Shown one piece after another: positions 2,113 through 20,876 of a DNA stretch of 64,000 nucleotides. The notes below the pieces were generated by a model that was not told the origin of the DNA, ran no database searches, and saw only the letters and a program-made list of their open reading frames with translations. Positions within the stretch are counted from its first letter, which is position 1; the number at the start of each line of letters is the position of its first letter. A program made the position numbers and the translations under genes. This DNA comes from Candidatus Margulisiibacteriota bacterium (lineage in GTDB: Bacteria > Margulisbacteria > WOR-1 > O2-12-FULL-45-9), in NCBI GenBank assembly GCA_034723395.1, contig JAYEOW010000007.1:1-64000 (forward strand). Direction: 5' to 3'.

Positions 2113-3070
2113 CTTAATTTTATTATTTATGGTTATTTCCCCATCAGTTACTTATGCTATGGGCGTTGTTCCTGCAACAGAAGAAGTAATAGTTCCAACG
2201 ATCGAATTTGTAGGATCGATCGGCTTGCCGGGAACCGGCGACGGCCAATTCTATTATCCCCGGGATGTCTCGGTCGGGCTTGCCGGTGACCTCGAAACCG
2301 GGTTGGGAAGCATTTTTGTGGCAGACACGGGGAATAATCGTGTCCAAAGGGTGCAGGGAGATGGGACATATCTTTATCAATTCGGCAGGTTTGGGACTGC
2401 TCAGGGGAAATTTAATTCTCCGGTAGGGATCACAGTCGATTTTAATCTCCGTATCTATGTTACAGAAAAAGATAATGACCGGGTCCAGCTGTTCGATATC
2501 CGGGGGAACTTCTTAAGTGAGATTGCTACTGGTGAATATAACTATCGGACAATAAATGGTCCAGCGGGGATTGATGTTGATACCTGGGGGAACGTTTATC
2601 TTGCAGATTCGGGAAACGATCGAATTTTAAAATTTAGCGATGTTGGTAGATTCCAGGAAGCATATGGCGGATTTGGCTGGGGGTCCGGTTTTTTTGATAA
2701 TCCGATGGATGTGGCGGTTGATAAGCATCGCTATATCTATGTGGCCGATACCCAAAACCATCGTATCCAGAAATTAGATTATGATGGACAACCGCTCTTT
2801 TCCTTCGGAAGCATGGGAAAGGAGCCGGGCCAGTTTTATCACCCCCAGGGAATAGAGGTGGATGACCGGTTTATCTACGTTTCAGACACCGGGAACGACC
2901 GGATCCAGCTCTTTTCGAAGCAGGGAAAATTTGTTGCCGCCTTTGGTAAATCGGGATCCCGCAGGGGAGAGTTTAACGGACCCGTCGGGATTGCTAAGGG
3001 GCAGGATAACCGGCTGATCATTGCTGACTCCGGAAACCACCGCATTCAGGAACTTCTTATTAATTACTGA
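2096..3070 (+). CDS. Secreted NHL-repeat beta-propeller protein
   Basis: Hydrophobic N-terminal signal; about six repeats of G.F..P..IAVD...YVADTGN.RIQ. Confidence 0.9.
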   Translation: MNFLISLILLFMVISPSVTYAMGVVPATEEVIVPTIEFVGSIGLPGTGDGQFYYPRDVSVGLAGDLETGLGSIFVADTGNNRVQRVQGDGTYLYQFGRFGTAQGKFNSPVGITVDFNLRIYVTEKDNDRVQLFDIRGNFLSEIATGEYNYRTINGPAGIDVDTWGNVYLADSGNDRILKFSDVGRFQEAYGGFGWGSGFFDNPMDVAVDKHRYIYVADTQNHRIQKLDYDGQPLFSFGSMGKEPGQFYHPQGIEVDDRFIYVSDTGNDRIQLFSKQGKFVAAFGKSGSRRGEFNGPVGIAKGQDNRLIIADSGNHRIQELLINY

Positions 3071-3095
3071 AATTTTCCCTAAAATATGCCGATAT
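3068..3095 (+). promoter_or_regulatory. Alternative-sigma-like promoter motif
   Basis: TGAAA-N15-GCCGATAT. Confidence 0.75.
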
Positions 3096-3120
3096 ATATG
3101 TAGTAAAGGAGTGGAGGATC

Positions 3121-3405
3121 ATGAATCCCGTAAAAAAATTCAATATCGGCAATTATAAAGAGGTCCTTAAAGAGATCGAAGAACTTGGCAAGTTCGATTG
3201 TCTAAAGGAGCTTGAAGATCGGGTTATTCAAGAGATCTCCGCGCTGGTGCAGGAGGGGACAGATGAGGCGAAAAGAAAACTTGAGATACTTGAACAACTG
3301 ATCAACGAAGAATTAGATTTCAAACCCCGTAGCGGCCTTTTAATTTCCGCGTTAAAGAATAGTATCACCGGAGCGATATCAGCCGCAAAATTTTCCCTCT
3401 TTTAA
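3121..3405 (+). CDS. Small helical hypothetical protein (94 aa)
   Basis: GGAGG RBS; clean ORF downstream of the promoter motif. Confidence 0.7.
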   Translation: MNPVKKFNIGNYKEVLKEIEELGKFDCLKELEDRVIQEISALVQEGTDEAKRKLEILEQLINEELDFKPRSGLLISALKNSITGAISAAKFSLF

Positions 3406-3429
3406 GATATGTGTTAAGATATATCCCTG

Positions 3430-4155
3430 ATGGCGAATGAGCTGTTAAAGATCGAACATATTGTTAAACAATTTGGCAATGTATCCGCAGTAAATGACCT
3501 CAGTTTTTCGATTCTTAACGGTGAAAGCCTGGGATTGGTAGGCGAATCGGGATCCGGGAAAACTACCCTGGCGCGAATTATCCTTAAGCTGATCGAACCG
3601 ACAAGCGGATCTATTGTATATAATGATGTAGAAGATATCCGCCGGGAGTGCCAGATTGTCTTTCAAGACCCCCAAACTTCGCTCAATCCGAGGATTCGGA
3701 TCGGTGAAGCGGTTGGGGAACCGATCTTAATCCACAAATTAATGCCAAAAGATAAAATCGCTGCTAGAGTTGGTGAGCTGCTGGAGTTAGTTAAACTTCC
3801 AAAAAATTATGTCTCCCGTTTTCCACATGAGCTTTCGGGTGGGGAGCGGCAGAGGGTGGGGATTGCCAGAGCCTTGGCATCGCAACCACGCTTCCTTATT
3901 CTCGATGAGCCGGTTTCCTCCCTCGATGTTTCGATCCAGGTGGATATATTAAAATTACTCCGGGAGATAAAAAGAGAGCTTAATTTAACCTATCTGTTTA
4001 TCGCCCACGATCTTTCGGTGATCGGTTTTATGTGCGATCGGGTAGCGGTGATGTCAACGGGGAAACTGGTCGAGATCGGCCCGCGCAGCGAGATCCTCGG
4101 ATCTCCGAAAGATCCTTATACTAAAAAGCTTCTAGAATCTACGCTGAGTATTTGA
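3430..4155 (+). CDS. ABC transporter ATP-binding protein, OppF/DppF-like
   Basis: GESGSGKT, LSGGERQR, ILDEP, FIAHDL. Confidence 0.93.
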   Translation: MANELLKIEHIVKQFGNVSAVNDLSFSILNGESLGLVGESGSGKTTLARIILKLIEPTSGSIVYNDVEDIRRECQIVFQDPQTSLNPRIRIGEAVGEPILIHKLMPKDKIAARVGELLELVKLPKNYVSRFPHELSGGERQRVGIARALASQPRFLILDEPVSSLDVSIQVDILKLLREIKRELNLTYLFIAHDLSVIGFMCDRVAVMSTGKLVEIGPRSEILGSPKDPYTKKLLESTLSI

Positions 4156-4199
4156 TCGCATCCCTTACCCTACAGTTATTCAGCTACAGTTCTATTATT

Positions 4200-4265
4200 T
4201 CTCCCTCTCCCAGCGGGAGAGGGACGTCTTGGATAATTGAACGAAAAAAATAGCTAGGGTGAGGG
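4200..4265. repeat. REP-like palindrome between convergent genes
   Basis: CCCTCTCCC-agc-GGGAGAGGG ... GGGTGAGGG. Confidence 0.7.
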
Positions 4266-4278
4266 TCGTTGAATTAAT

Positions 4279-5631
<1,353 letters not shown>

Positions 5632-5688
5632 TTATTATCCTGAGCGACGCCGAGCTTGTCGAGGCGGAGTCGAAGGACTGAAGCCACT

Positions 5689-5717
5689 AGTGTAAAGGAA
5701 AAGTACAGGAATTTCAA
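5689..5717 (-). promoter_or_regulatory. Sigma70-type promoter of eno
   Basis: Minus strand TTGAAA-N17-TACACT. Confidence 0.55.
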
Positions 5718-5732
5718 GATTGGAAAAATCTG

Positions 5733-5761
5733 GTGAAATTTCGGGAAAATCTACCGGATAC
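5733..5761 (+). promoter_or_regulatory. Alternative-sigma-like promoter motif
   Basis: GTGAAA-N15-CCGGATAC. Confidence 0.65.
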
Positions 5762-5765
5762 TTTT

Positions 5766-7988
5766 ATGATGGCGTACATTACAAGAAAAACTTTATCCTG
5801 GCGGCAAATCAATGGGTCTCATCAGAGACTTCTGGGAGAGAAGTGCTATAAGTTGGCACACTATAAGAAGAAAGGTTTTCCTGTCCCCCCTTTCTTTGCG
5901 ATCCCTAATACCCTGGTGGCTGAGATCATAAAAAATAATGCGGTTGCCCCGGGGATAAAAGGGGAGATTCGCGAGCAAATAGGAGAGCTTGAGTCGGAGA
6001 CGGGCAAGAAATTTGGTGGAAATAAAAATCCACTAACGCTTATCGTGCGCAGCGGGGACCCGCGCAACCTGCACGGAGCGTTGCTGTCTCTGATGGGTAT
6101 CGGATTGAATGACATTACTTTTAATTCACTGTTGAGAGAAAATCCCGGGAGAGAGAAAAACATCTGCCGGCTGTACCTGGATCTAATCTTTGATTTTGCG
6201 CTGCATGTTGGGGGATTGAAGAGGTCCCTGGAATATTTGCAGTTGAAGGCGGCAGATCCGAATCTGGGGCTCGTTGATTATAAAAAATTGATCGAAGAGG
6301 CAGAAAGATTTATTTGCCGTTATTCCACGCAGCATTCTCTGCCAAAGGATGTTTATGAGCAGGTATCAGGTGCGGTGATAGGAGTAGCGATGTCCTGGCA
6401 AAAGACCGAAGCCCGGGTGGCCGCAACTTCAATTGGGATAGACTGGAAGAAGGAAATGCCTTCGGTGTTTGTGCAGGAGTTTATGGATGGATCGATGGAG
6501 GATGCATTTGTTAGTATGACTACTCCCCCGCCTTTTGGCAGATATGTGCCCGGAACCTCGGGGCGCTATGTGATGTCAGGTACGCATAGGAAAAAAAACA
6601 CTCTTGGGTATCTGCAGGAAAAGAATCCCACTCTTTATACAAAGGTTATGAAATATGCTGACGGGTTGGTGGCCGAAGAAAAAGCGCCGCTGAATATCGA
6701 AGGAGTGATCTCCGGCGGCAGGTTGAACATTTTCCAGATTTGCCAGGCGAACCTTTCACCCCCTTTTCTGCAGAAAGCGATTGAAGAGATGGAAAAAGGG
6801 AACGTGATCTCGGGGGTAGAGGCGGATCGTATGACGATCGAGTCGGTTGTGCGGAACGACTTTAAATTATTCAAGTTGAATCCGGAAGCGAAATTCAGGG
6901 AGATCGCCCAAGCCTTGCCGGTCATGGGGGTGAGTGGATCACCATCACAGATGGCAATGTGCGGAGATCTGGCATTTACCGTTTCGGAGGCGTTTTTATT
7001 GAAAGACCGTGGGAAGCGGGTGATTTTCTTTTCTACCGATCCCCGCGATGAGAATTTGTATAAACTGCTTCACGGCAGGGGCAACAGAATTATCGATGGC
7101 CTGATTGCCACTTATAGCATTGATAAGCTTGGTTCTCATATTGTTGACATCGCAATGGCGGTCGGCATCCCGGTTGTCGCGTCCCTGAAAGATTATGCGA
7201 TTAATCCCCTGCATGAGATGTTTCCCATGCTTCAGCTTATGCCGTTTTGCGGCCATCGTCTATATATTGGTAATGATAATTATCCGCTTAATTCCGGATC
7301 GCAAATTGTTATCGAGGGGAGGTCGGGAAAGATACTGGTCACAAAACACTCCGAACCAATTGTTGAAGTCCGTACCGTTGTAAATTTGTCTTACGATGTA
7401 AATCTTGGCGGGCTTGTGCGAAGCATGCGCGATTGTTACCAGCCATTTTCATACGAAGATATTTTGGCTGAGCATGGGAAACTTGTTAGGCGGATAGGCA
7501 ATCTTGAGGAAAATAGAAAAGTGGTAAAAGACAAGGGGAAATTGGAGCAGATAAGTGGCGAATTAGGTTGGCTTCAGTCCAAAACGCATGTTTTGCACAT
7601 TTTCGGATATGAAAAGGGAAAAAACAAAGGATTGAGCAGGAGAGATATTGACCTGGACGTCGCGGTAGCGGACGGCAACCTTGGACGGATACCGGGATTG
7701 GAGAATAAGCAGATCGCAATAGAGAGAATTGAAGGCAGGGTAATGATTCTTATCGCTTCCGAAATCGAATATAACGGGACTTATTATCAGGAGGGTGACT
7801 ATGCAAGGAAAGACGCGGGCAGAATTTACGAAGCGGTTAAGGGCAGGGGAGTGACGGTTAGGCAATACATTAAAACTGCCAAATTTTCCAGGCATACTAA
7901 TCAGAGAATAGTTTATGGAATTGAATTAGTAAGAAGCGATCTTGAAGCGGTTGTTGATGTTTTAAAGGATTATTTTAATGAAATTTAA
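5766..7988 (+). CDS. Divergent PPDK-like protein (ATP-grasp + phospho-His domain, unrecognised C-terminus)
   Basis: LLGEK..L....GFPVPPFF, TGKKFG..NPL..IVRSG, IGLND, GSHIV...GIPVV; no PEP/pyruvate barrel. Start moved to ATG 5766/5769. Confidence 0.75.
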   Translation: MMAYITRKTLSWRQINGSHQRLLGEKCYKLAHYKKKGFPVPPFFAIPNTLVAEIIKNNAVAPGIKGEIREQIGELESETGKKFGGNKNPLTLIVRSGDPRNLHGALLSLMGIGLNDITFNSLLRENPGREKNICRLYLDLIFDFALHVGGLKRSLEYLQLKAADPNLGLVDYKKLIEEAERFICRYSTQHSLPKDVYEQVSGAVIGVAMSWQKTEARVAATSIGIDWKKEMPSVFVQEFMDGSMEDAFVSMTTPPPFGRYVPGTSGRYVMSGTHRKKNTLGYLQEKNPTLYTKVMKYADGLVAEEKAPLNIEGVISGGRLNIFQICQANLSPPFLQKAIEEMEKGNVISGVEADRMTIESVVRNDFKLFKLNPEAKFREIAQALPVMGVSGSPSQMAMCGDLAFTVSEAFLLKDRGKRVIFFSTDPRDENLYKLLHGRGNRIIDGLIATYSIDKLGSHIVDIAMAVGIPVVASLKDYAINPLHEMFPMLQLMPFCGHRLYIGNDNYPLNSGSQIVIEGRSGKILVTKHSEPIVEVRTVVNLSYDVNLGGLVRSMRDCYQPFSYEDILAEHGKLVRRIGNLEENRKVVKDKGKLEQISGELGWLQSKTHVLHIFGYEKGKNKGLSRRDIDLDVAVADGNLGRIPGLENKQIAIERIEGRVMILIASEIEYNGTYYQEGDYARKDAGRIYEAVKGRGVTVRQYIKTAKFSRHTNQRIVYGIELVRSDLEAVVDVLKDYFNEI

Positions 7989-7994
7989 AATAAA

Positions 7995-8023
7995 GTGAAA
8001 TTTATTTTTAAACATGGCGAAAC
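7995..8023 (+). promoter_or_regulatory. Alternative-sigma-like promoter motif
   Basis: GTGAAA-N15-GGCGAAAC. Confidence 0.7.
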
Positions 8024-8056
8024 AAAGGTGAAAAATATTTTAAGGGGGTAATTGAT

Positions 8057-9412
8057 ATGTTGGGGAAAGTAGGAGTGTTGAACGGGCCAAAAATTTATTG
8101 GGCGGCAAACGGCGCCAGGGGCGGCGCGGGAGTTTATCGCTCAACTTTTAAAAAATTGTCGATTTATGATCTAGGCAGCCGGATTAAAGGGAAACGTGTC
8201 CTCATTCGCTGCGATTTTAACGGGACCGCAAAAAATGGGGAGATCTTTTCACCTACGAGGATCGACGCGGCGCTTGATACTATAAAACATGTAATGGAGC
8301 AGGGCGCGTCGCAAATAGTACTCCTTTCTCATAATGGGAGAAATAAGCAGATTAAGGCGGAAGGAGAGGGCGTTTATACCCTGGAGCCGGTTGCCCAATA
8401 TTTAACTGGGCAGCTTGGGATAAAGGTTGATTTTGTGAAAGGATTTGGTAAACCGTTAACTTCACAAGCCGGGGTAGTTCTTATGGGAAATACCCGCGCT
8501 GACGCCAGAGACGAAGCAAAAGATCCGGCGGCTAATAAAGCTTATGCCGAAGAAATCCTTGCCACTACTAATCCGGATGTATACATTATAGACGGTTTCA
8601 GTGTGTGCCATCGCGACCAGGCTTCGGTTACCTGGCCGGCAAAATTGATGAAAGAGCAGGGAAAAGCAGCCGTGGCCGGACACCTCCTTGCTGAAGAGTA
8701 TAAATTTTTTATAGACAGCGTGGTAAATAATCCGCAAAAGCCTTTCCTGGTCTTTTTGGGAGGAGCAAAAGTTGAAAGCAAACTGCCGATTCTCGAAGCC
8801 CTCCTTGCCAATGTTGACCAGATTGTGATCGGCGGGGCGATGGCTTTTCCATTTATGCTGGAGAAGGGATATAAGGTTGAGGCAATGGACCCATTTGCCT
8901 CGCGCGAGGGGAGAGCTGAAGAGCTAAGCCGGGAGAGGGTAATTGCCGGAAGGATTTTGCAGGGAATAAATGGACCAAAAGTGATTATCCCGACCCAGAT
9001 AGTTGGCCGGGACAGGACAATCATTGATATCGACAGCAAAGATCCCGCTCCAGAGGGTTTTGTTATGAAGGACATTTTGGCTACAGAGCTGTTTTCAGGG
9101 TTGCAGGCAGTCGGCTACAAAACAATATTCTTTAATGGGACCTTTGGTGCATACGAGGAAAAGCTTGGAGGCCATGTTGAAGGGACTAATGCAGTTTTGT
9201 CTTTTATGGGAGATCAAACTAAGAAAGGGGCGATTACAATCCCAGGCGGCGGTGATACCATTACCGTTTTGAAGGGGCTTCGGAAAATAAGGGAAGTGAG
9301 CTTTTATCATGAAACGACCGGCGGCGGCGCCAGCGGATCGCTGATAACCCTCGGTTTTGCAGGTGATCCGGAAAGCCTGCCGGGGTTTGCTTGTTTAACC
9401 GACAAAGCATAA
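8057..9412 (+). CDS. pgk: Divergent phosphoglycerate kinase with N-terminal extension
   Basis: GKRVLIRCDFN, SHNGR, DGFSVCHR, LGGAKV, GGAMA, FNGTFG, GGGDT, TGGGAS. Confidence 0.85.
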   Translation: MLGKVGVLNGPKIYWAANGARGGAGVYRSTFKKLSIYDLGSRIKGKRVLIRCDFNGTAKNGEIFSPTRIDAALDTIKHVMEQGASQIVLLSHNGRNKQIKAEGEGVYTLEPVAQYLTGQLGIKVDFVKGFGKPLTSQAGVVLMGNTRADARDEAKDPAANKAYAEEILATTNPDVYIIDGFSVCHRDQASVTWPAKLMKEQGKAAVAGHLLAEEYKFFIDSVVNNPQKPFLVFLGGAKVESKLPILEALLANVDQIVIGGAMAFPFMLEKGYKVEAMDPFASREGRAEELSRERVIAGRILQGINGPKVIIPTQIVGRDRTIIDIDSKDPAPEGFVMKDILATELFSGLQAVGYKTIFFNGTFGAYEEKLGGHVEGTNAVLSFMGDQTKKGAITIPGGGDTITVLKGLRKIREVSFYHETTGGGASGSLITLGFAGDPESLPGFACLTDKA

Positions 9413-9433
9413 TTTTTAATATTTTAAAAAAGA

Positions 9434-9462
9434 GTGAAATTTTTTAAAAAATGGTTTGATAA
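9434..9462 (+). promoter_or_regulatory. Alternative-sigma-like promoter motif
   Basis: GTGAAA-N15-TTTGATAA. Confidence 0.65.
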
Positions 9463-9500
9463 ATAAGTGAGAGTAATTTTAGTAAATTTGAAGGAGGAAA

Positions 9501-10925
9501 ATGGAAATGGCAATTACAGCAGCAACAAGGAATATCAGGTTCGCGGTTAGAGGTTTCGGCGGTGAGATCGGAGATACGATGACCAGAGTTTTAATGGCAA
9601 TGAACAGGGGTAAATTTAGAGCTTTTAAACAGGTCACTGGTGAATCGATCACCGCTTTGATCAGACACAAAGAAGGGATGTCGCTAAACGCGACGGTAAG
9701 AGCTGATCGGTCATTTGCTAAACTAGAAAGAAGAGGCGCTCTGGCAACAAATACTGCCTCTTCCTATGCATATATCCCAACAATTGAAGCTGTTGTGTTT
9801 GATAAAGAGGTTGGTGGAAGGGTCCATATTCACGGAACAGATGGAAGAGTTCTAACCGTAGATTATAAGCCGGTCCCTTCGTCCAATGTGGATCGACCCG
9901 AACTAGATAACCTTGATTTCCTGATCGATGCTACCGGAGTAGGGCTTAAGAAGGATGCCGGATTACAGCATCCAGGACATTATGCCAATTATGATAATTT
10001 AACCGTACTTTTTAGCGCGCCGATTAAAACGGTAAAAGGAGTCCCTCATCACCTGAACGGTTTAAATCTGGTATCTGCGGAACAATTAAATGCTACGGGT
10101 TCTTGCTCGACTCACGCGGGAGTGGACGTTATTCGCTATATCAGGGAAGGAATTATGGAGAAGTTAGGACTAGGTGAGGGTGAAATAATAATCGAAGGGG
10201 GGCATTTTAATGCAACCCATTCGTTAACCCCTTCAGATGCCAAAGTGCTTCCTTATTATGACAGCGCTTATATCCCGCAAACGACCGGCTTTGGCAGCGC
10301 GGCCGGAGTTGTATACCCGGTCAGCCATATAGGGAATATTGCGGCGGCTACCGGCAGATATAATTCATTCTTTAAGCAGGGAGATGTTGAAGCTAACGGA
10401 ACTTCAATATTCTCGCTGGCGATGACCATCTCGGTTAAGCATAGGAAAGAACCTGTAACCCACGAAACTATCCAAAGGGCTCTGCTTAACGCAGCCAGCG
10501 ATCCGGAGGGGAGCAAACATATTGGGGTATTAAAAGATGTAGTTAAGTTAAAAACCAATAAAAGGGCCGGTTACTTTACCTCACTTTCCATCTCCGGCAT
10601 GCCTCAGACTGCAATCCTGTCAGTTGGACCAGATAATATTTCCGTTGTCAAAATAGGGGGGAAGAAGGTTGACGAGCAGGGGAACGAATTTGATATGTAC
10701 GTGGTTACGATCAATAATGTCGGATATGATAACCGGCTCGGATTTACTGTCGATATGCTGGACGAAGCAAACGGGATTACCGCTAAACGGTTGGGAACGG
10801 AGCTTATCCCCCGATTCCATCATGTAGATGACTTGGGCAATAACTTAGCCTTTATCTCTTCCACGGTTGGGAGACAATTGTTTGCAAACGCGGTAGCAAA
10901 GACCGGCGGGCAATTGTTAGTCTAA
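9501..10925 (+). CDS. Highly divergent glyceraldehyde-3-phosphate dehydrogenase-like protein
   Basis: GFGGEIG, IDATG, FSAP, GSCSTH (catalytic Cys), HSLT, IPQTTG, YDNRLGF; 474 aa, much longer than typical GAPDH. Confidence 0.75.
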   Translation: MEMAITAATRNIRFAVRGFGGEIGDTMTRVLMAMNRGKFRAFKQVTGESITALIRHKEGMSLNATVRADRSFAKLERRGALATNTASSYAYIPTIEAVVFDKEVGGRVHIHGTDGRVLTVDYKPVPSSNVDRPELDNLDFLIDATGVGLKKDAGLQHPGHYANYDNLTVLFSAPIKTVKGVPHHLNGLNLVSAEQLNATGSCSTHAGVDVIRYIREGIMEKLGLGEGEIIIEGGHFNATHSLTPSDAKVLPYYDSAYIPQTTGFGSAAGVVYPVSHIGNIAAATGRYNSFFKQGDVEANGTSIFSLAMTISVKHRKEPVTHETIQRALLNAASDPEGSKHIGVLKDVVKLKTNKRAGYFTSLSISGMPQTAILSVGPDNISVVKIGGKKVDEQGNEFDMYVVTINNVGYDNRLGFTVDMLDEANGITAKRLGTELIPRFHHVDDLGNNLAFISSTVGRQLFANAVAKTGGQLLV

Positions 10926-11000: not shown

Positions 11001-11029
11001 GTGAAATTTTGGGGCGGTTTTAACGAAAA
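11001..11029 (+). promoter_or_regulatory. Alternative-sigma-like promoter motif
   Basis: GTGAAA-N15-AACGAAAA. Confidence 0.7.
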
Positions 11030-11050: not shown

Positions 11051-14000
11051 ATGGCAATAACTGGAATAGGGCCCCGAATATTCAAGCTTATTAACACCCG
11101 CAGGGATAAATACGCGTACCATGTGCAAAAGAACGGCTTAGCTTTTGAACTGCGTGATGGGAGGCTATTTCTTTCCGCCATTACCCGGGGACCTTGGGGA
11201 CAGCGCAAGATTGCCGAAGCGGTTGAACTGGCGCTTGATCCTCAGGTAATCCAGGGATTACTTCTGAAAGGGATCCACCAATTTACATTACCGGCGAAAG
11301 TTTCGCTGGAACAGGTGGAAGCGGTGTGTAGAGGGGACCTGTCTTCGGTGGCCAGCGGGATTAAATATGACTATAGATCATCTGTTGACCAACTGGTGAA
11401 GGGGGTGGGCGATCCCAATGGGGTTGTGAAAGTGTTGATTGATCATATTCCCCAGGTTAAACCTGAACACCAAAGACAGTATTATGAAACCTTGAAAGAT
11501 ACTTTTGACAATCCTTCGCTTACGCCTGCTTCCCGCAAGCTCATATTAAACGCAATGTCTGCCAAGGTTGCTTCGCTTGAAGGGTCCCGGAGTGAAGGCT
11601 ATTTTTACTGGAGCGCGCTGGCGATTTTGCAATCCAATAATATTAGTGAAGCCGATTATGGGGTGGAAGTGGAGCGCTTGATCGCGTTGGCTATCCAAAA
11701 TATGAACGAAAAATATCCGGCGGGAGCCAACAACGTTGCGCTGGATTATATATCTTTTATCTCTTCATTTTTTGCCCGCAATCAGAATGTCTCCTGGGTG
11801 GCAGCTCTTTCCTCTAAATATTTCCGCGCGATTTGCGATAACGCGCTGGCTAAATCAAAAGAGCATGCTGGCGACCAAATGGTGGTAAACCGGATGTTTA
11901 TGGACCTTGTCCGCGACCTCGGGGCGCTTGAGGGTGAAAGAGGATATCTTGAAGGGTTTATTCCGCGGGTGAGCAGTTATTTTATTGAAGCTTTACAATC
12001 GGGATCTGCGGCTGATTGCGCGCGTTTGATCGATGGGTTAACCATGGCTGGAGCGCAGGTCATAGGCTTAAAGGATCGCGCTTTGGTGTATGTAATAGTG
12101 CCTGACCTGGTAAGGCCTTTTGAGATCCTGTCCAGCAAGAGATTTGAGGCGACCAACAGCACAGGCAAGTATAGTAAAGAAGATTATGACCAGATTGACC
12201 AATTAAAGAGGGCTTCAAGACATGCGGCCCGCCAGCTTTTTGAGTTGATTACAAAAAACCCGCAGGAAGCGGCCCCTTTAATGGTCCGCCTAACTTTTAT
12301 TTTGAAGAATGAGGGATTTAATTTTGCGGACTATACTTTGATACAGGGGGAGATAAGCCGCCTTTTACATTGTGATCTTGCGCCGATCTGGCATATTGCC
12401 CGCCAGCTCATAAAAGCGATCCCGTATTCCTGGAGGGAGATTGGAGTAAGCGATTCTGTCAATCTTGTCCGGTCAAGCGGGGATAAAAAGGCTGATCCTT
12501 CTACCATGCGTAAGGTTTCGGAAGATGTTGATAGGCTCGGCGGAAATAAAGGGATACTGCACCTGCTAAGAGTCCAGATCCATTCATCTTCGAGCAAACA
12601 GAACGTTGATCTGATGGATAAGATTTTTGAATTTTGGATGACGGGCAATGCAGAGATTTTTAAAAAGCTTGAAACCTCCGAAGCATTTCTCCAGCTGATG
12701 GCGGAAGAAGGTAAAAGAGGCCATACAAGAGCCTCTTTAATCGGCTATGAAAAAGACCAACCGCAAATACAGGTTCTCTTTGCCGCCCTGGCGCGGGCGC
12801 GGGGGTTAGATCGCCTGGGGATGGATGACTTATATGAGATTTCTATGGACCAGGCCCGCCAGGTATTTGATAAATGCCGGGATGTCAGCCATGTCTCCAA
12901 AGAAAAAACAATGTTAATGCTCCATCTTTATCAATTGATTAGGGATAAATATGGGGTATACGCCGGGAAACTCACAGATGAGGTCCGGCATAGCAGTTAC
13001 TGCAGTGGATATAATAGTTCAACTGTGAGTAAGGAGCTGGCCGCCGCGGTTGACGCGTACGAGAAAGATCCGGCGGCGGAGACAGCCCTCGCGCTGATGC
13101 GGCAGCTGCATATCGCAAGGCGCTGGGCGAAACGGAAGCTTCAAGCCGCAGGAGAATTCGATGAAGATATAGCCATGAGCCAGATCTATGAAAAGCGGCA
13201 TGTTGCTCCTTTTCGTTCGGGTACCTGGGGGACATATTCTGAGCCTAAATTTGATCTTTTTAACCTGGACCGGATTCTCGAAGATTATCAGAACCTGATT
13301 ATTGAGAAGATATTTGGAGAGCATTTTGCAAACTTAAGTAAAGAAAGCTTGCCCCTGTTTTTGTCCGGAATGTATGAGCTTATCCTGGCCACTTTTGATA
13401 ATGGGATCGGCTCCACCAGCCTGCTGTCACTGGCTAATATGCTAAAGATATCGTCTATCAGCCGCTCCCAGGTAAGGGACCTTTCGGCCATGCTGGCAAG
13501 GCAGTGCCGGGGGGTTGTCGACCGTTTAAACAGCGAATATCGTTTTGGCAGGCAGGTGGATGACCAGGATGCTATTAAAAGGGAAGAAACGTTTATGGGG
13601 AACCTGGTTGCGGGAGAGGTCGGTTTTAAGCGGTTTGGTGGGGAGGTGGATAGATTAAGATTGTTTTTAAATGGTCTCCTGGAAGTTGAAGGAGATGGAT
13701 ATCTTTATGAAAAGCATGCCCCTAGTTTAGGGCCTGTTGAGCTGATGCCGGTTATCGGGCAGTGGGACCGAAAGGACCTCCCAAAAAGATATTTTTTGGG
13801 CGGCAAGGCGGCGAACCTGTTTCGTATGCGGCAAGAGGGACTTCCTGTCCCGGAAGGGTTTACTATTTCGGCTGAATTTTTTAAGAGAGAAACTCCAAAG
13901 GGGCAGGTTTACGATCAACATTTGAAGGAGGGGGTCGACCGCAGGAATTTTAAGCTGGCCGTGCAGGAGCGGATCGCTGGTATTGAAGAGGGGACTGGGA

Positions 14001-15268
14001 AAAAGTTTGGAGGAGATAAAAATCCTTTAATTTTTTCGGTCCGTTCCGGCAGTGTTATCTCTATGCCCGGCCAGATGGAAACAATAACCAATGTCGGCCT
14101 AAATGATGTGGCCGTCGGAGCCCTGGAAAAAGAGACCGGTAATAAATGGTTTGCTTACGATTGTTATCGCAGGTTTATCCAATCCTATGCGATGGGCGTG
14201 CATGGTATCAGCAGGAAAACATTTCACCAAATAATTGAAACGTATAAAAAGGGGAGAGGCGTACGTAAAAAATCCGAACTTACAGGGGACGATATGCAAC
14301 AGATTGCCCAGGCCTATGGCGCCAAGGTAGAAAGTTTGGGCTATTCAATTCCTCAGGGCCCAGTAGAACAGTTGTGGGAGGCCATCTGGGCGGTTAATCG
14401 ATCATGGTATAGCGAGAGGGCTACTTCATATAGGAAAAACCTGGGCATTTCGGACAGGTGGGGTACGGGCATAAGTGTCCAAGTGATGAAGTTTGGAAAT
14501 CGAAATGATAAATCCTTGACCGGCGTGCTCCTTACCCACGATCCAATAACCGGACAGAAGAAGCTGCAAGGCAGTTTTAAGTACAACGCGCAGGGGAATG
14601 ATGTTGTGGATGGGGTAGGGGGCAGTATTCTTGATTTGAAAGACCTTCGCTGCAAAGCTCCCGAAGTTTACCACAAATTGGTTGAAGGAGCGGAAAAAGT
14701 TTTAAACAGGCTTGCAACCCCTCAAGAGATGGAGATTACGGTTGAAGCAACGGAAGCCGGGTCTCTAGAAGTTTATTTTCTCCAAACCCGGGACCTTAAT
14801 ATTCAGCATAAACCATTTCCGGTTTTTGACGAAGCGGCTTTGTCGGGTATGCGTTATATCGGTTTAGGCGCGCCAATCGCTGGCGGGGCTTTTAGGGGAA
14901 GAGTTATCTTGGACCCGGCGGAGATGATCGGGCTCAATAAAAAAGCGCCGGCCAGAAAGATGGGGGAAATAGGCTTTGCTTATTTCGCGAACGATCTGGT
15001 GCCTGAGGATATCGAACTAATTATTGCCGGTGACGCGTTTTTGATCAGGCAGGGATCGCCGACCTCCCATGCCGCGATCACTTTAAGGCCCCTCGGAAAA
15101 ACCGGGATTGTTTTCCCCGGTTTTGATAAACAGGGAGATCAGGTCAGGATCGGAGATCTGATTGTACGGAAGAACGAAATAATCAGTTTCGACGGGAGGA
15201 CAGGAAGGGTGTTTTTGGGCAGAGCGCCATTATTACGGGATGCTTCTGGAGCCCTAATATTGAAGTGA
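11051..15268 (+). CDS. Large atypical PPDK-family protein (about 900 aa N-terminal region + ATP-grasp + phospho-His domain)
   Basis: LGGKAANL, GLPVPEGF, SVRSG..SMPGQMETITNVGLND, AYDCYRRF, AQGNDVVDG, LQTR, TSHAA; ends after the His domain. Confidence 0.85.
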   Translation: MAITGIGPRIFKLINTRRDKYAYHVQKNGLAFELRDGRLFLSAITRGPWGQRKIAEAVELALDPQVIQGLLLKGIHQFTLPAKVSLEQVEAVCRGDLSSVASGIKYDYRSSVDQLVKGVGDPNGVVKVLIDHIPQVKPEHQRQYYETLKDTFDNPSLTPASRKLILNAMSAKVASLEGSRSEGYFYWSALAILQSNNISEADYGVEVERLIALAIQNMNEKYPAGANNVALDYISFISSFFARNQNVSWVAALSSKYFRAICDNALAKSKEHAGDQMVVNRMFMDLVRDLGALEGERGYLEGFIPRVSSYFIEALQSGSAADCARLIDGLTMAGAQVIGLKDRALVYVIVPDLVRPFEILSSKRFEATNSTGKYSKEDYDQIDQLKRASRHAARQLFELITKNPQEAAPLMVRLTFILKNEGFNFADYTLIQGEISRLLHCDLAPIWHIARQLIKAIPYSWREIGVSDSVNLVRSSGDKKADPSTMRKVSEDVDRLGGNKGILHLLRVQIHSSSSKQNVDLMDKIFEFWMTGNAEIFKKLETSEAFLQLMAEEGKRGHTRASLIGYEKDQPQIQVLFAALARARGLDRLGMDDLYEISMDQARQVFDKCRDVSHVSKEKTMLMLHLYQLIRDKYGVYAGKLTDEVRHSSYCSGYNSSTVSKELAAAVDAYEKDPAAETALALMRQLHIARRWAKRKLQAAGEFDEDIAMSQIYEKRHVAPFRSGTWGTYSEPKFDLFNLDRILEDYQNLIIEKIFGEHFANLSKESLPLFLSGMYELILATFDNGIGSTSLLSLANMLKISSISRSQVRDLSAMLARQCRGVVDRLNSEYRFGRQVDDQDAIKREETFMGNLVAGEVGFKRFGGEVDRLRLFLNGLLEVEGDGYLYEKHAPSLGPVELMPVIGQWDRKDLPKRYFLGGKAANLFRMRQEGLPVPEGFTISAEFFKRETPKGQVYDQHLKEGVDRRNFKLAVQERIAGIEEGTGKKFGGDKNPLIFSVRSGSVISMPGQMETITNVGLNDVAVGALEKETGNKWFAYDCYRRFIQSYAMGVHGISRKTFHQIIETYKKGRGVRKKSELTGDDMQQIAQAYGAKVESLGYSIPQGPVEQLWEAIWAVNRSWYSERATSYRKNLGISDRWGTGISVQVMKFGNRNDKSLTGVLLTHDPITGQKKLQGSFKYNAQGNDVVDGVGGSILDLKDLRCKAPEVYHKLVEGAEKVLNRLATPQEMEITVEATEAGSLEVYFLQTRDLNIQHKPFPVFDEAALSGMRYIGLGAPIAGGAFRGRVILDPAEMIGLNKKAPARKMGEIGFAYFANDLVPEDIELIIAGDAFLIRQGSPTSHAAITLRPLGKTGIVFPGFDKQGDQVRIGDLIVRKNEIISFDGRTGRVFLGRAPLLRDASGALILK

Positions 15269-15297
15269 AATATCTCCCAGATATTTTCTTAAAAAGT

Positions 15298-15346
15298 ATC
15301 CCGACGCTTCGGTCGGGATCCCGTTCCGATCTGATCGGAAGGGGAA
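15298..15346. repeat. Palindromic element (ATCCCGA..TCGGGAT family)
   Basis: Two adjacent hairpins; related element at 19988-20011. Confidence 0.55.
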
Positions 15347-15374
15347 AATCATGTGGAAAGTATTTTCCAGAAAA

Positions 15375-15403
15375 GTGAAATTTTTAAGAAAAGGCACCGA
15401 TAA
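15375..15403 (+). promoter_or_regulatory. Alternative-sigma-like promoter motif
   Basis: GTGAAA-N15-ACCGATAA. Confidence 0.75.
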
Positions 15404-15433
15404 ATATTTGGAAGAAAAAGGAGAATCAAAACC

Positions 15434-15643
15434 ATGAGTTTAAGAGAATTTAGATGTAAGTTTTGCCACAGACTTCTAGCAAAAGTAGAGGAAGGAAGCA
15501 AGGTAGAGATCAAGTGCCCAAAGTGCAAAACGATGAACCTTTATCAGGATGAGACGGTTATTGTGTATGAAGTTCCTGAGAACAATGTAACCAAAAAGAT
15601 CCTCGAAAAGGGGATTGTTAAGTACGATTTCTTGCAGAACTAA
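15434..15643 (+). CDS. Mu Com-like zinc-finger protein
   Basis: EFRCxxCxRLL...VEIKCPKCKT.N; AGGAG RBS. Confidence 0.8.
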   Translation: MSLREFRCKFCHRLLAKVEEGSKVEIKCPKCKTMNLYQDETVIVYEVPENNVTKKILEKGIVKYDFLQN

Positions 15644-16425
15644 GCGTGGTTAATCTTGATCTTCTCCAGTAAAATGGTCCTAAGTCGTTCACTACACTGT
15701 AGTTTTGTTGCCTTTTCCCTTAATTTGTTGTAGGCTCCCATCCAATAATCTTTCCACGTTTCACTGTGTACCGAAGGCCAAGGCATTTTTACATTTGCCA
15801 AAGCAACCTCACCGGTTAACATTTCATAAAGGGAGAGGCCCAGGCCAAAATGGTCGTCTTGTGGTCGGATTGGATAGCCCCGCATATGGCTTAGGGTCAT
15901 ATATTGTAAGGTCCCAACCACTCTGCGATTAATTTTTTCTTGGCCTGCGATAGGTCTTGCGCGCTCAAAATCTGCCAGTTTTACCGTTGCGCCGGGAAGG
16001 ATATTTTCGGTTTTTACGTCTCCATGTGCTAATCCATGCTGATGAGCATGCGAAAGCGCCGAAGATATCCCCTGGTTTATCCTTAAAACCTCGGCTTCGG
16101 GGAATGGTCCAGTAATCTTTATCTTTCTTTTTGCGTCGGCTGAATCGACGTATTCCATCTCAAGATAAATATTCCCGTCAATTCTGCCGCAACCATGCAG
16201 AGCGGTAATGTTTGGATGGGGGAGCAGTAAGTCCAAAACCATCGCCTCTCTTAACAGATGATCCTGCGAAGAAGTTCGAGCAACTTTTAGGGCAAACCAC
16301 TGATTTTTGGGACCGCGGACTTTAAATACCTGTGTTTTTCCTTGTAAAGCTACTCTTTCCCCTGGTTTCAGATTGCGGGAACCGCGAATTATTTTTCTTA
16401 AGTTTACATATGTTGTGGCGTTCAT
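15640..16425 (-). CDS. Hanks-type Ser/Thr protein kinase, atypical
   Basis: ALK, HPNI, HGDVKTEN, ADFE (DFG variant), GTLQYM. Confidence 0.85.
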   Translation of the reverse strand: MNATTYVNLRKIIRGSRNLKPGERVALQGKTQVFKVRGPKNQWFALKVARTSSQDHLLREAMVLDLLLPHPNITALHGCGRIDGNIYLEMEYVDSADAKRKIKITGPFPEAEVLRINQGISSALSHAHQHGLAHGDVKTENILPGATVKLADFERARPIAGQEKINRRVVGTLQYMTLSHMRGYPIRPQDDHFGLGLSLYEMLTGEVALANVKMPWPSVHSETWKDYWMGAYNKLREKATKLQCSERLRTILLEKIKINHA

Positions 16426-16440
16426 TATCTTTCTGAACTA

Positions 16441-16468
16441 ATATCGCCGGTTTTGCGGAGGGATTTCA
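16441..16468 (-). promoter_or_regulatory. Alternative-sigma-like promoter motif
   Basis: Minus strand TGAAA-N15-GGCGATAT. Confidence 0.75.
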
Positions 16469-16472
16469 GTAG

Positions 16473-17717: not shown

Positions 17718-17759
17718 TCTAAGTGGATTATAGCATATTGATAACGAAAAGTAGTAGGT

Positions 17760-18105
17760 GCAGGGGCTCTGCCCCTAGCAAGATAAGCTCTAGTTTCTTG
17801 TTTTATATTCCATGATACCCCGGTAACTTTTTTGGTGGCAAAAAAGTTACCAAAAAACCACATAAGGGGTTCCCCCTTATGTATCCCCGCGCAACTAACT
17901 CGGCCGGACACAGCAATCCCTCGACTTCGCTCGGGATTGCTCTGCCGGCCTCGAACAGAGCTGCTAATAATGTTTTTTATTGTTTTAATCGAAAACTAAA
18001 TGTTTGTGTTCCCCCTCTCCACGAAGTGGAGAGGGGAATGAATTGCGCCGGCTTGTCCTCTGAAGCACTAAGTGCGAAGGAGGAAGGCGCAAGAAAGGGG
18101 TGAGG
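17760..18105. repeat. Intergenic cluster of nested palindromes / MITE-like repeats
   Basis: AGGGGC..GCCCCT; GTAACTTTTTTG..CAAAAAAGTTAC; ATAAGGGG..CCCCTTAT; GCAATCCCTCG..CTCGGGATTGC; CCCCTCTCCAC..GTGGAGAGGGG. Confidence 0.65.
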
Positions 18106-18465
18106 TTACCCCCAAAAGATCAATCGTATCGCGATCAGGAGTAAGAATATGCCGAAAATCTTACGTAAATGCAGATCGGGGAGGAGATGGGCAAAATGGG
18201 CGCCGATCAGGCCGCCGATAAAGAATCCCAAAGCTAAAAGTAAAGCCCAACCGATATTAACATTCCCATTCTTCCAGTAGTGCCAGGCGGCCAAAAGGCC
18301 GATTGGGGGGACCATCATTGCCAGGGTCGTCCCTTGCGCTAAGTGCTGGTTTAATCCATAGATAACAACTAAGATTGGAATAACTATGGTGGCACCACCG
18401 ATCCCGAAGAGGCCGCTCATCATGCCGGCCAACAATCCGGTAACTAATAGTCCTACTATTTGCAT
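18106..18465 (-). CDS. TauE/SafE (TSUP) family membrane protein, half-size
   Basis: GLFGIGGATIVIP, HLAQGTTL, about 4 TM segments. Confidence 0.85.
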   Translation of the reverse strand: MQIVGLLVTGLLAGMMSGLFGIGGATIVIPILVVIYGLNQHLAQGTTLAMMVPPIGLLAAWHYWKNGNVNIGWALLLALGFFIGGLIGAHFAHLLPDLHLRKIFGIFLLLIAIRLIFWG

Positions 18466-18908
18466 TATTTGTTCAGAAGCTCACGAACCATCTGACTGGC
18501 GATCTTTCCGTCAATCCCCTGATTCTTCCCGGTGACCTCTTTCATCACTTTGCCCATATCTTTCATCGAGGCTGCGCCGGTATCTGCAATAGCTTGCTGG
18601 ACGATCTTTTTTATCTCTTCAGGAGTCAGTTCCGGCGGAAGATATTCGGCAACAATTGCCAACTCTTTTTCATGGGTAGCAACTTCTTCGTTTTTGCTTA
18701 CTTTTTTAAACTCTTCGATCGATTGCTTTAGGTCTTTGGAATACTTCTTGATAATTTTAGTGATCTCTTCTTCAGGAAGGTCTCCGCGGGCATTAACATA
18801 AAGAATTTTACTCTTTACCATGCGGAGGACAGCTAAGCGGAGCTCATCCTTTGCTTTGAGCGCGGATTGAAGATCGGAGTTTACTTTTACGAAAAGTTCA
18901 CTGGACAT
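18465..18908 (-). CDS. GatB/YqeY domain protein
   Basis: ALKAKD..RL..LRM, EYLP, KDMGKVM. Confidence 0.9.
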   Translation of the reverse strand: MSSELFVKVNSDLQSALKAKDELRLAVLRMVKSKILYVNARGDLPEEEITKIIKKYSKDLKQSIEEFKKVSKNEEVATHEKELAIVAEYLPPELTPEEIKKIVQQAIADTGAASMKDMGKVMKEVTGKNQGIDGKIASQMVRELLNK

Positions 18909-19009
18909 AGAAAATCACCTCATATTTTATCTGTTCATTATAAGCTAAATCAGATAAGAAGGTCAAGAAAATTAATCTGAATATCGGTAAGATCGGGAAC
19001 ATCATATAC

Positions 19010-19041
19010 CCCTTCGACTCGCTGCGCTCGCTCAGGGCATG
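19010..19041 (+). repeat. REP-like element CCCTTCGACTCGCTnCGCTCGCTCAGG
   Basis: Near-identical copy at 40591-40623; inverted relative at 5638-5677. Confidence 0.75.
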
Positions 19042-19974
19042 CCCCTAAGAGGTCTTTCTGATAGCGACCAGTCGGGGTCTCAGGATTCAACTTTTGCAAG
19101 TATAGCATGGAATGATAGTCCAAGATAATTGGCGGGAATGAAAGCGCCGCGGGATCAATCCGTTCCTGGCTTTCCGCTAGTATTTCGATTGGTATTTTTC
19201 CCCACTTGTAAGAATTAGGCCTTTTGTAATTAAAAACTATCTGATAAGTATAAGCCTTGTTGAGAAAATCAATCTGGTTATCATAATCTTCCAGATCAAA
19301 GAAATGGTATTCAATAATTCGATTAAAAGTCTCAATGTCTGCATTGTAATTAGGCCGGCCTCGGGGAATTCTGATATGTTTAGCTCCATAAACCTTAGAT
19401 ACTGAGGGATATCGTCCAGATACTTAACATCTACCTGAATCTTCTCAAAAGGTCGTAATTTGGCTTTAATAGCCCTCAGATCCCGCTTCTTTTGGTATTT
19501 CCTCTTCCGTTTGCCAATCAATCCGTGATCCTTAAGCACGCGATAAATTGTACAGGTTGAATATGGCAATTTGAGCGAAGCCTTAATCGCCCAGCAGGAA
19601 ATCCGGTTCTTGCGTCTTTTTCTCAACGCCACAATCCTTTCCTCGTCAGCCTTCGGAATCTTTCTGGGCTGTTTTGGTCCCCTTGACTCATCCAATAAAC
19701 CATCCAGCCCCTTAGTCGTATACCTCCTGTGCCATTTACGAACTGTTACTACTGAAGCCATATATTCCTTGGCAGTTGGTTTAATACCGATTTCCTGTAC
19801 TCTTTGTACCATTTTTAACCTCCATCCATATTTATTCGCCGATAGCCTAAGGTTCTCATAATATGTTATGCTTACTATAGGGATCACTCCTTTCTATGTG
19901 TTGTTGCTAACATCATTATAAGGGTGGTCCCCAGCCTTAAAAAGGCTTGATTTTCCCGCCCTCAATAATTTACA
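19040..19974 (-). pseudogene. IS481-family transposase remnant with internal deletion/frameshift
   Basis: HTH region (TVRKW..RY...GLDGLLDESR), IQVDVKYL, then a frame switch to HIRIPRGRPNYNADIETFN; TGT-starting end at 19974. Confidence 0.8.
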
Positions 19975-20153
19975 AATAATGCCGGCGGGATCCCGATCGA
20001 AGCATCGGGACATGTTTTTTGTGATTTTTTTGATATAGCCACCCCGAAACCACCTCCCCAACCCAAACACCCCTTTACCATCGAGAAACCCTATTTCTTC
20101 TAATCCCAGGGGTATACCATGTTCCAGATCATTTCTAATTAATCTAAATATAG

Positions 20154-20182
20154 GTGAAATTTTAGCCTTTTGGGAGCGATAT
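20154..20182 (+). promoter_or_regulatory. Alternative-sigma-like promoter motif
   Basis: GTGAAA-N15-AGCGATAT. Confidence 0.75.
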
Positions 20183-20194
20183 TTATATGTAGTT

Positions 20195-20851
20195 ATGCGA
20201 GTGAAATTAGAAGGAATAAACGTTTGTCACTCTCTAGGTGGCAGAAAATATCAGAAAGAACTTCCTCGGATCAGGCAGATTGCCCGGCAGGCTGCTTTTG
20301 CGCACAGGGTCCTCGGCCGGATCCGGCCCGAAGCGGGTTCTATTGGGGAAAGGGTAGACAGGGCTTGCGGGTTTGCTGCCCGGACCATGCTGACCGCCCA
20401 TACACTTTTTGATGAAATGAAGGCGCAGGAGACATCAGATGCTTTTCTCTGTGACGGCCTGCTGCTTAATAAGCGGGTTGTCCAAGTGATGCGGGGAGGG
20501 CGTACCCACGGGGTTTTGGTTTTTGATCTCGGCAGCGAGTGGATTGTGGCTGATCCGACCATTGCTCAGTTTGCCCTCAACGCAAAACTGGCGCGCCTGA
20601 AATCCAGGCCAGGAGCTTTTTCAGAGAGTTTCTTGGATGTGCAATTGTTTCTTGCATCAGTTCATCCGACTGAAAACGATTTTTCCAGCAGAATGCAGGA
20701 GCTTTTTGGCCAGTCGTCCTGGCAACGGCTCTCTCCCTTTGACCCCGCGGTCCGCAGGGTTAACCGGCGTTTTTTATTGTTCTATCGTTCAGACCTTCTT
20801 TCATTTAAAGAGTATATCAGGTTCCATATGGAGAATCTTGAAAATGGGTGA
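20195..20851 (+). CDS. Hypothetical protein, possible transglutaminase/papain-like Cys-His-Asp enzyme
   Basis: RACGFAA ... THGVL ... IVADPTIAQF. Confidence 0.55.
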   Translation: MRVKLEGINVCHSLGGRKYQKELPRIRQIARQAAFAHRVLGRIRPEAGSIGERVDRACGFAARTMLTAHTLFDEMKAQETSDAFLCDGLLLNKRVVQVMRGGRTHGVLVFDLGSEWIVADPTIAQFALNAKLARLKSRPGAFSESFLDVQLFLASVHPTENDFSSRMQELFGQSSWQRLSPFDPAVRRVNRRFLLFYRSDLLSFKEYIRFHMENLENG

Positions 20852-20876
20852 AATTATTTATAATAGGTGCCGAAAA
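20848..20876 (+). promoter_or_regulatory. Alternative-sigma-like promoter motif
   Basis: GTGAAA-N15-GCCGAAAA. Confidence 0.75.

Follow-up and report, generated by a model that had tools for sequence, protein, structure and literature searches.

A probable sigma-28-type regulon in a WOR-1 bacterium as candidate cargo of a flagellum-derived export apparatus without a filament

The start of contig C7 (JAYEOW010000007.1) of a Candidatus Margulisiibacteriota bacterium of the WOR-1 group (assembly GCA_034723395.1), a stretch of 64,000 nucleotides referred to here as the window, carries nine copies of a two-part motif of fixed spacing, each ahead of a start codon, and raises the question of what reads this motif and what the genes behind it are for. 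We favor, with slightly better than even confidence, the answer that the sites belong to a sigma-28-type regulon whose products are the type III export cargo of a flagellum-derived apparatus without a filament, and in this we infer secretion, the sigma factor and the target from sequence. The genome (G000; 1.68 Mb, 97% complete) was examined together with its relatives in a set of 109 genomes of the phylum, 55 of the same class and 54 of other classes; G094 (a single contig) and G057 stand below for the same class, and G045 (a flagellated relative), G047 and G013 for other classes.

All nine sites were found at the coordinates and on the strands, and with the -10 boxes, of the original prediction, and the pattern TGAAAT-N17-GAWA occurs nine times in the window, whereas 100 block-wise dinucleotide shuffles give 0.98 on average and 4 at most. 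The sites do lie, as had been claimed, a few to about 40 nt before a start, since the first in-frame start comes 25, 4, 33, 38, 21, 30, 15, 12 and 30 nt after the 8-nt box ends, and co-oriented genes each have their own copy, as in a run of five (genes at 5766, 8057, 9501, 11051 and 15434) and in the pair 20195/20907. Genome-wide, TGAAA-N15-NNCGAWA has 92 matches at spacer 15 versus 7–22 at each of 13 other spacers. With a position weight matrix (PWM) that started from the nine sites and was then refined on upstream matches, for which the spacer control is independent of training, 100 sites score at least 17 at spacer 15, as opposed to 1–4 at five other spacers. Matches are not as common inside genes: among 118 sites scoring at least 15, 101 are intergenic, 12 lie in a gene on the same strand and 5 in a gene on the opposite strand. 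An in-frame, same-strand start follows within 120 nt at 85 of the 101 intergenic sites, versus 932 of 3000 random intergenic positions (a looser definition of "upstream", which also took in 45% of random positions, was discarded).

The conserved -10 columns of the matrix are C 0.80, G 0.98, A 0.99, T 0.81 and A 0.93. A Shine-Dalgarno-like word precedes only 2 of the 31 genes that start within 11 nt of the box, versus 38 of the 43 that start 17–70 nt away, and this bimodality suggests that transcription begins about 6–9 nt after the box and that the near genes are leaderless. The exact string TGAAAT-N16-CGATA is present in 10–194 copies (median 53) in all 55 genomes of the class, where the reversed control gives 0–3, and in 1–83 copies (median 9.5) in the 54 genomes of other classes. 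We read the nine repeats as putative promoters of a single class, hereafter class A, with about 100 strong copies in the genome. An alternative-sigma regulon is supported by the fixed spacing, the strand and position bias, the leaderless/Shine-Dalgarno bimodality, the class-wide conservation and the presence of two FliA-like genes.

Which sigma factor would read these promoters? The genome encodes RpoD, one extracytoplasmic function (ECF) sigma factor, two FliA-like proteins and two divergent sigma-70 paralogues. Both FliA-like proteins match the FliA/WhiG model best, but with scores (135.6 and 75.1) that stay below its cut-off of 189.6; a FliA-like protein of this genome is 59–79% identical to WOR-1, Saganbacteria and Margulisiibacteriota proteins. 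One of the two genes, at C55:4553-5293, sits within the operon flgF-G-A-H-I-(J)-fliA-flgB-C-fliE-F-G-H-I-J, and its type was found in 59 of the 109 genomes with a cut-off too strict to show absence outside the class. The other, at C46:681-1271, encodes a sigma factor with regions 2 and 4 only; its type is present in 105 of the 109 genomes, and at 12 of the 14 relatives' loci that were examined flhA is about 1 kb away.

A second promoter class, class B (GCAAGT-N16-CGAWA), has 20 matches versus 0–4 at other spacers. The class A matrix gives at most 3.3 to five flagellin upstream regions, taken from three flagellated relatives; in three of these regions, read by eye, CTAAAG stands at the same spacing before a CGA box. 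The class A -35 box, TGAAAT, is not the TAAA(G) of sigma-28, while the GCCGATA-type -10 box and the spacing fit sigma-28. The geometry had been predicted to suit either sigma-28 or ECF factors; sigma-28 fits better and ECF less well, because the -10 box and spacing match those of the relatives' flagellin promoters and only the -35 box differs. There appear to be three promoter classes, alike in -10 box and spacing but each with its own -35, and their number keeps pace with that of the FliA-like genes. The regulon of the original prediction stands, and its "one dedicated sigma" proves too simple, because a second promoter class (GCAAGT-N16-CGATA) and a second FliA-like gene exist. Its sigma70 boxes at housekeeping genes, sought by regular expression, are clear at trpC, weak at eno and absent from the two SLH genes.

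The arrangement suggests a cascade of sigma factors. A class A site (PWM at least 14) lies upstream of the C46-type sigma gene in 3 of 15 loci, a class B site before the fliK operon in one of the three loci with flgE located, and a sigma70 box 38–39 nt ahead of flgF in 8 of the 20 loci inspected, 17 of which had flgF located; these sites do not settle the matter. At C55:137-175 (locus L012) a near-consensus sigma70 promoter stands 38 nt before flgF, which is apparently leaderless. A strong class A site stands 17 nt before the rpoD gene (C29:79465-80520; L037:16402-17457), within the end of the preceding gene, so that the primary sigma may be subject to feedback from the alternative one.

The flagellar export genes, to which both FliA-like genes are linked, lie on two contigs. 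Contig C55 carries flgFGAHI, the fliA-like gene, flgBC, fliEF, a half-size fliG (154 aa) and fliHIJ, and contig C46 carries fliK, a short flgE (271 aa), fliMNOPQR and flhBA. The export core (FlhA, FlhB, FliPQR, FliI, FliH, FliJ and FliF) is complete and free of internal stops, and the rod and the L and P rings (flgB, flgC, fliE, flgH, flgI) are kept, unlike in injectisomes; no search was made for a secretin. Neither flagellin nor the MotB plug was found in this 97% complete genome, and its sole MotA-family match is an ExbB beside ExbD. Searches by tblastn with late flagellar and chemotaxis candidates of G045 (flagellin, the FliD cap, FliS, FlgK, FlgL, FlgN, FlgM, FlhF and CheA/CheW) gave no match, with the proviso that a short, divergent FlgM could escape. 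Across the phylum, FlhA is present in 104 of 109 genomes and flagellin in only 13, of which 12 have a second FlhA; within the class, flagellin occurs in 1 of 55 and the MotB plug in 4 of 55. The class's only flagellin-family match (G092:C4:62270-62632; E 6e-16, in a 253-aa frame) is in a genome with a single FlhA.

The second line of evidence concerns the N-termini of the regulon proteins. The 118 sites lead to 91 genes, 84 of them behind intergenic sites, and 71 with a start within 70 nt and at least 130 residues were kept. Over residues 2–36 these 71 proteins contain 11.7% Arg versus 4.6% in other proteins, and 4.6% Asp plus Glu versus 10.2%; their net charge is +5.2 versus +1.4 (p 1e-19), and the two sets are equal at residues 72–106. 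A leader rule (net charge at least 4, at most two acids, at least three Arg, no hydrophobic stretch) selects 46 of the 71 versus 49 of 1256 other proteins, and hydrophobic signal-like stretches show the opposite bias (5 of 71 versus 344 of 1256). Where a housekeeping copy exists the leader is an extension beyond it, by about 40 residues in PGM, 30 in PGK, 10–13 in PFK, 37 in dGTPase, 65 in RelA and 8 in the nucleotidyltransferase. In G094 and G057, counted on 400-kb samples, net charge is raised too (3.6 versus 0.9 and 3.3 versus 1.1, each p <1e-4) and hydrophobic signals are rare in the regulon (2 of 14 versus 80 of 269, and 0 of 21 versus 82 of 298); the strict Arg rule held in G094 (5 of 14 versus 7 of 269). 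No excess of amphipathic helix or strand over shuffles was found in the leader (p 0.16 and 0.20), so that a mitochondrial-type presequence has no support. Five genes outside the regulon (C1:15418, C7:84798, C11:4696, C36:5911 and C48:6811) resemble one another in an N-terminal stretch that is followed by a hydrophobic segment.

As to what is encoded, 51 of 83 regulon proteins scanned lack a Pfam family (E 1e-4). Those with one include a Ser/Thr kinase, a PP2C, two RelA/SpoT, an ADP-ribosylglycohydrolase, two further HD proteins, three HATPase proteins, a CheR, PGM, a nucleotidyltransferase, TPR proteins, two glycoside hydrolases, the two sigma paralogues and RpoD. Genes in the window contribute another kinase, and also PFK, PGK, a GAPDH-like protein and two PPDK-derived proteins, which form a parallel glycolytic set. 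Their spread is patchy: the PGK paralogue occurs in 4 and the PFK paralogue in 13 of the 109 genomes. At the 13 PFK-paralogue loci, this one included, the promoter (PWM at least 14) is present in 12 and the extension in all 13, whereas two ordinary PFKs have neither. The divergent sigma-70 paralogues (C33:3291-5624 and C31:18582-19250) have basic leaders, and one carries about 550 residues of no known family ahead of its sigma domains.

In two genomes of other classes, G045 and G047, unrelated regulon proteins begin instead with M-x-x-K-[IL]-[IV]-[SA] (the KIIS start), and by eye G013 is similar. A K-[IVL]-[IV]-[SA] start is found in 13 of 22 regulon proteins versus 13 of 331 others in G045, and in 8 of 28 versus 20 of 332 in G047; the motif falls within the first ten residues 27 and 29 times versus about 2 in each later bin, and its Lys stands at Met+3 in 37 of 58. 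No Pfam family (E 1e-6) was matched by 44 of these 58 proteins, and the rest include ankyrin proteins, PGI, FBPase and signalling proteins. One of the 58, an ordinary GMP synthase, is a false positive.

Class B promoters precede genes for small polar proteins and for proteins of 1152–1911 residues. Directly behind one of them, at C16:18098-18845, lie genes for two paralogous 108-aa proteins; the second has relatives in 20 of 109 genomes, where class B sites are in most cases close by, and its profile finds 134 representatives. It is modelled as a helical hairpin with a short beta insertion (predicted local distance difference test, pLDDT, 83; a second model, 75). The family had no sequence match in Pfam or PDB and only atlas matches below 0.9, and in a fold search the best Z was 7.6 among tied generic hairpins, with WXG100 proteins among the tied top matches. 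A needle role for it is a lead and not a result, because the fold matches are tied generic hairpins only. The surrounding cluster (C16:11932-26763; L237) contains five class B promoters, the two 108-aa hairpins, 77- and 97-aa polar proteins, an 1838-aa protein, a glycosyltransferase and a 533-aa protein, and is a candidate replacement for the filament, tip or translocon.

The late export substrates of a flagellum are under the control of sigma-28. What is seen directly (the motif, its position bias and conservation, the composition of the leader, its extension over housekeeping copies and the gene content) would fit together as follows, the transcription start, the responsible sigma, export and the target cell being the steps that we supply. 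Class A would be the promoter of a FliA-related sigma belonging to the filament-less export apparatus. The late substrates of that apparatus (flagellin, hook-filament junction, cap and, in this class, stator) appear to be gone, and the promoter would precede instead some 100 scattered, fast-changing genes. Most of their products would start with an added leader of 15–45 residues that serves as an export address, Arg-rich here and M-x-x-K-I-I-S/A in the two distant genomes. The cargo (kinases, PP2C, RelA/SpoT, sigma-70 paralogues, ADP-ribosylglycohydrolase, HD proteins and PFK, GAPDH, PGK, PPDK and PGM) may act in or on a partner cell, while a minority, such as rpoD, a 94-aa protein and a zinc-ribbon protein encoded in the window, and a few proteins with Sec signals, would act at home. 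We prefer this export reading because the late substrates are lost, the sigmas and the export gate are kept phylum-wide, and the promoter stands before accessory genes with a non-hydrophobic leader.

Several of our observations weigh against it. The leader rule was framed after the sequences had been seen, with the net-charge cut lowered from 5 to 4, and selects just four of the nine window genes. The strict Arg rule failed in G057 (2 of 21 versus 9 of 298, p 0.16) and in the other classes (G047 2 of 25, G013 1 of 25, G045 0 of 19), and in G107 its 12 of 21 stand against 3 of 8, a control too small. As in type III substrates, the leader is N-terminal, non-hydrophobic and variable in sequence; it is poor in acids yet has 9–13% Arg over residues 2–46, and a canonical type III signal is said to be polar, with few charged residues (PMC6140923). 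The KIIS start is found in none of the 71 regulon proteins of this genome, where loose KIIS-like patterns are not enriched either, and is absent from the regulon genes of G094 and G057, so that one machine would have to serve two unlike tags. Only two of the four loci of the PGK paralogue carry the promoter, and rpoD itself belongs to the regulon. Because nearly all genomes carry the apparatus, co-occurrence cannot discriminate; outside the class 38 of 54 genomes have the MotB plug, and many of these lack flagellin, which confines "motorless" to this class. No needle, tip or translocon was identified, and no needle protein is among the fold matches listed for the hairpin family. The CesT chaperone model matched none of the 109 genomes, which is uninformative since control genomes gave no match either.

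The strongest competitor, which we consider a real though clearly minor possibility, is a stage-specific regulon that acts inside the cell and in which the leaders would be degradation tags or internal localization signals. In Bdellovibrio bacteriovorus, FliA is responsible for 92 of 140 attack-phase promoters, and many of these do not belong to flagellar genes (PMC3627812), and a K-hydrophobic start near the N-terminus resembles N-motif 1 of ClpX (PMC9775585); both of these precedents count against export, as does the presence of ClpX in both KIIS genomes (it is present in G057 too). The rpoD gene, the zinc-ribbon regulator and the sigma paralogues would likewise be at home in such a regulon, and much of the cargo is of bacterial cytoplasmic type. 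On the other hand, a search for ClpX at E 1e-50, which detected it in 10 of 14 control genomes, gave no match in this genome or in G094, and these are genomes with the Arg-rich leader. Compared with the listed N-motifs 1 and 2 (PMC9775585), KIIS is longer, is fixed at Met+3 and mostly lacks the preceding Thr, which is present in just 12 of 58 starts. The tagged genes are, moreover, patchy and fast-changing, with no Pfam family in most of them, and the export apparatus would have to persist phylum-wide without late cargo.

Less probable, and in our judgment improbable, is that the leaders address another carrier (an unrecognized secretion system, vesicles or a protein compartment) and that the flagellum-derived machine is structural only. 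The departure of the Arg-rich leader from canonical type III signals would suit this, as would the paired hairpins of about 100 aa behind class B promoters with WXG100 proteins among their tied top fold matches. Other carriers are, however, scarce: a contractile sheath was found in 4 of 109 genomes, the type VI component VipB in none of 5, and a multi-domain FtsK/EssC-like ATPase was not detected by motif. WxG occurs in only 2 of 129 hairpin proteins, a C-terminal YxxxD/E in 3 of 71 regulon proteins versus 43 of 1256 others, and there is no C-terminal basic bias. Type II secretion requires Sec or Tat signals, and signals of that kind are lacking in 66 of the 71 regulon proteins.

It is very unlikely that the motif is read by the ECF sigma or is a transcription-factor operator. 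An ECF gene is present (C53:13061), the C46 sigma with its two regions is ECF-like, and the FliA-like proteins fall below the FliA/WhiG cut-off. That model is nevertheless the best one for both, both are linked to flagellar export genes, and the -10 box and 16-nt spacing recur, by eye, in three of the five flagellin upstream regions; two boxes without symmetry and a leaderless peak suit a promoter. The ECF gene is itself not among the genes behind the 132 sites scoring at least 12. Finally, that the leader is untranslated DNA read as protein by taking the first start codon after the promoter is hardly credible: starts were indeed set by rule and a later Met exists in some genes, but taking the most upstream ATG for other genes raises their count to only 57 of 1126, starts 17–70 nt from the box mostly have their Shine-Dalgarno-like word, the frame is open and the extension kept in 13 PFK orthologues, and KIIS stands at a fixed distance from Met.

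Returning to the window with the export reading preferred, the genes behind the nine sites are as follows. The first class A promoter (TGAAAT-N16-CGATA, 3068..3094, plus strand; PWM 26.8) overlaps the stop codon of an NHL-repeat gene upstream and precedes a conserved 94-aa protein of no known family (3121..3405, plus) with an acidic N-terminus and no leader, which probably works inside the cell; it has 11 matches, and those with names are from WOR-1/Margulisbacteria. The run of five, all on the plus strand, begins with a promoter at 5734..5760 (PWM 16.9) whose start codon follows 4–7 nt on (leaderless) and a divergent PPDK N-terminal-like protein with a basic leader (5766..7988). Next come a promoter at 7996..8022 (PWM 19.8) and the phosphoglycerate kinase (PGK) paralogue (8057..9412), whose N-terminus is about 30 aa longer than that of the housekeeping copy on contig C38, and a promoter at 9435..9461 (PWM 21.5) with the GAPDH-like protein (9501..10925). 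The latter has no sequence match in Pfam, NCBIfam or PDB, and is placed by language-model features (0.90) and by its model (TM 0.55 to a GAPDH cluster). Behind the promoter at 11002..11028 (PWM 23.1) a 1405-aa protein (11051..15268) consists of 900 residues without known family followed by PPDK nucleotide-binding and His-carrier domains; because it has no pyruvate-binding barrel, it may phosphorylate another substrate. The PPDK nucleotide-binding domain is present in three regulon proteins (window 11051-15268 and 5766-7988, and C50:43642-45678). The run ends with a promoter at 15376..15402 (PWM 26.7) and a 69-aa Mu Com-like zinc-ribbon protein (15434..15643).

On the minus strand, a promoter at 16442..16468 (PWM 22.1) serves a Ser/Thr protein kinase with a basic leader (15640..16425). 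The last two sites, again on the plus strand, are at 20155..20181 (PWM 22.1), before a 218-aa orphan with a basic leader (20195..20851), and at 20849..20875 (PWM 22.7), which overlaps the stop codon upstream and precedes the phosphofructokinase (PFK) paralogue with its N-terminal extension (20907..22226); the best model for this protein is PPi-dependent, and its orthologues keep promoter and extension. An IS481-like helix-turn-helix gene (19237-19887), with a related N-terminus at C22:13638, separates the two regulon blocks. Further along (37305-39817), a C5 methyltransferase, a HaeII-family endonuclease and Vsr form an ordinary restriction-modification cassette.

Elements of this arrangement are known from other bacteria. 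The Bdellovibrio attack-phase regulon is alike in that a flagellar sigma acts at about a hundred promoters with the same -10 CGATA and spacing, many before uncharacterized genes; it differs in its -35 (TTAAG-N16-CCGATA versus TGAAAT here) and in having a working flagellum (PMC3627812). A shared N-terminal leader is not mentioned in the portion of that report drawn on here, and the present genome has two promoter classes and two FliA-like genes. In Campylobacter jejuni, the Feds, FspA and Cia proteins come from sigma-28-dependent non-flagellar genes, some of whose products leave via the flagellar type III apparatus (PMC9856085); here, by comparison, genes for the junction and filament are absent, and some 50–100 proteins are candidate cargo. 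Lysobacter enzymogenes OH11 secretes non-flagellar enzymes through a flagellin-less flagellar type III system (PMC7688988), which is one strain's remnant, whereas the apparatus described here recurs across the phylum, stands beside a full flagellum in 12 genomes and has its own sigmas. Injectisomes, including an early Myxococcales branch, likewise re-use the flagellar export core after loss of motility (PMC3459982), and we postulate here a similarly N-terminally addressed, fast-changing cargo. They have a secretin and an SctF needle, and the Myxococcales systems are without flagellar rod genes (PMC3459982), while the machine described here keeps the rod, L/P rings, FliK and a short FlgE.

The text of the main genome paper, by term search, contains no mention of flagella, secretion or sigma factors (PMC6349859), and neither regulon nor machine is described in the title or opening abstract of the papers listed for Margulisbacteria, Saganbacteria, WOR-1 and Termititenax; subscription papers and supplements may mention flagellar genes. 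What our analysis adds, as the evidence suggests, is the shared N-terminal leader and the link of the regulon to a filament-less flagellar export apparatus.

A bolder version of the export reading, which we put forward tentatively and think more probably wrong than right, is that of a phylum-wide, independent conversion of a flagellum into a protein-delivery machine. Sigma-70 would drive the basal-body operon and one FliA-like sigma, class B the filament-replacing hairpin and giant proteins, and class A 50–150 tagged effectors, and RelA/SpoT, sigma-70 paralogues, CheR, histidine-kinase domains and glycolytic enzymes would be among the cargo injected into a prokaryotic host. To judge by family names, cargo with RelA/SpoT, sigma-70, CheR and kinase domains would point to a prokaryotic partner; we know of no injectisome that has a prokaryotic host as its target. 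A termite-associated class of Margulisbacteria attaches to spirochaetes. Host-associated members are on record in the phylum: one lives as a symbiont inside the cells of Trichoplax (PMC6784892), and one class is known from termites (bioRxiv 10.1101/568287).

WOR-1 and the other Margulisbacteria are uncultured, small-genome relatives of the cyanobacteria, and the promoter and leader together pick out, from sequence alone, a large candidate exported set in each genome. Such a candidate cargo would give a purpose to the flagellum-derived machine that is kept across the phylum. If the export reading is true, it would represent a further route from flagellum to secretion system and would point to a host-dependent life style; and if delivery into other cells is also true, these small-genome relatives of the cyanobacteria would be parasites or symbionts of other microbes.

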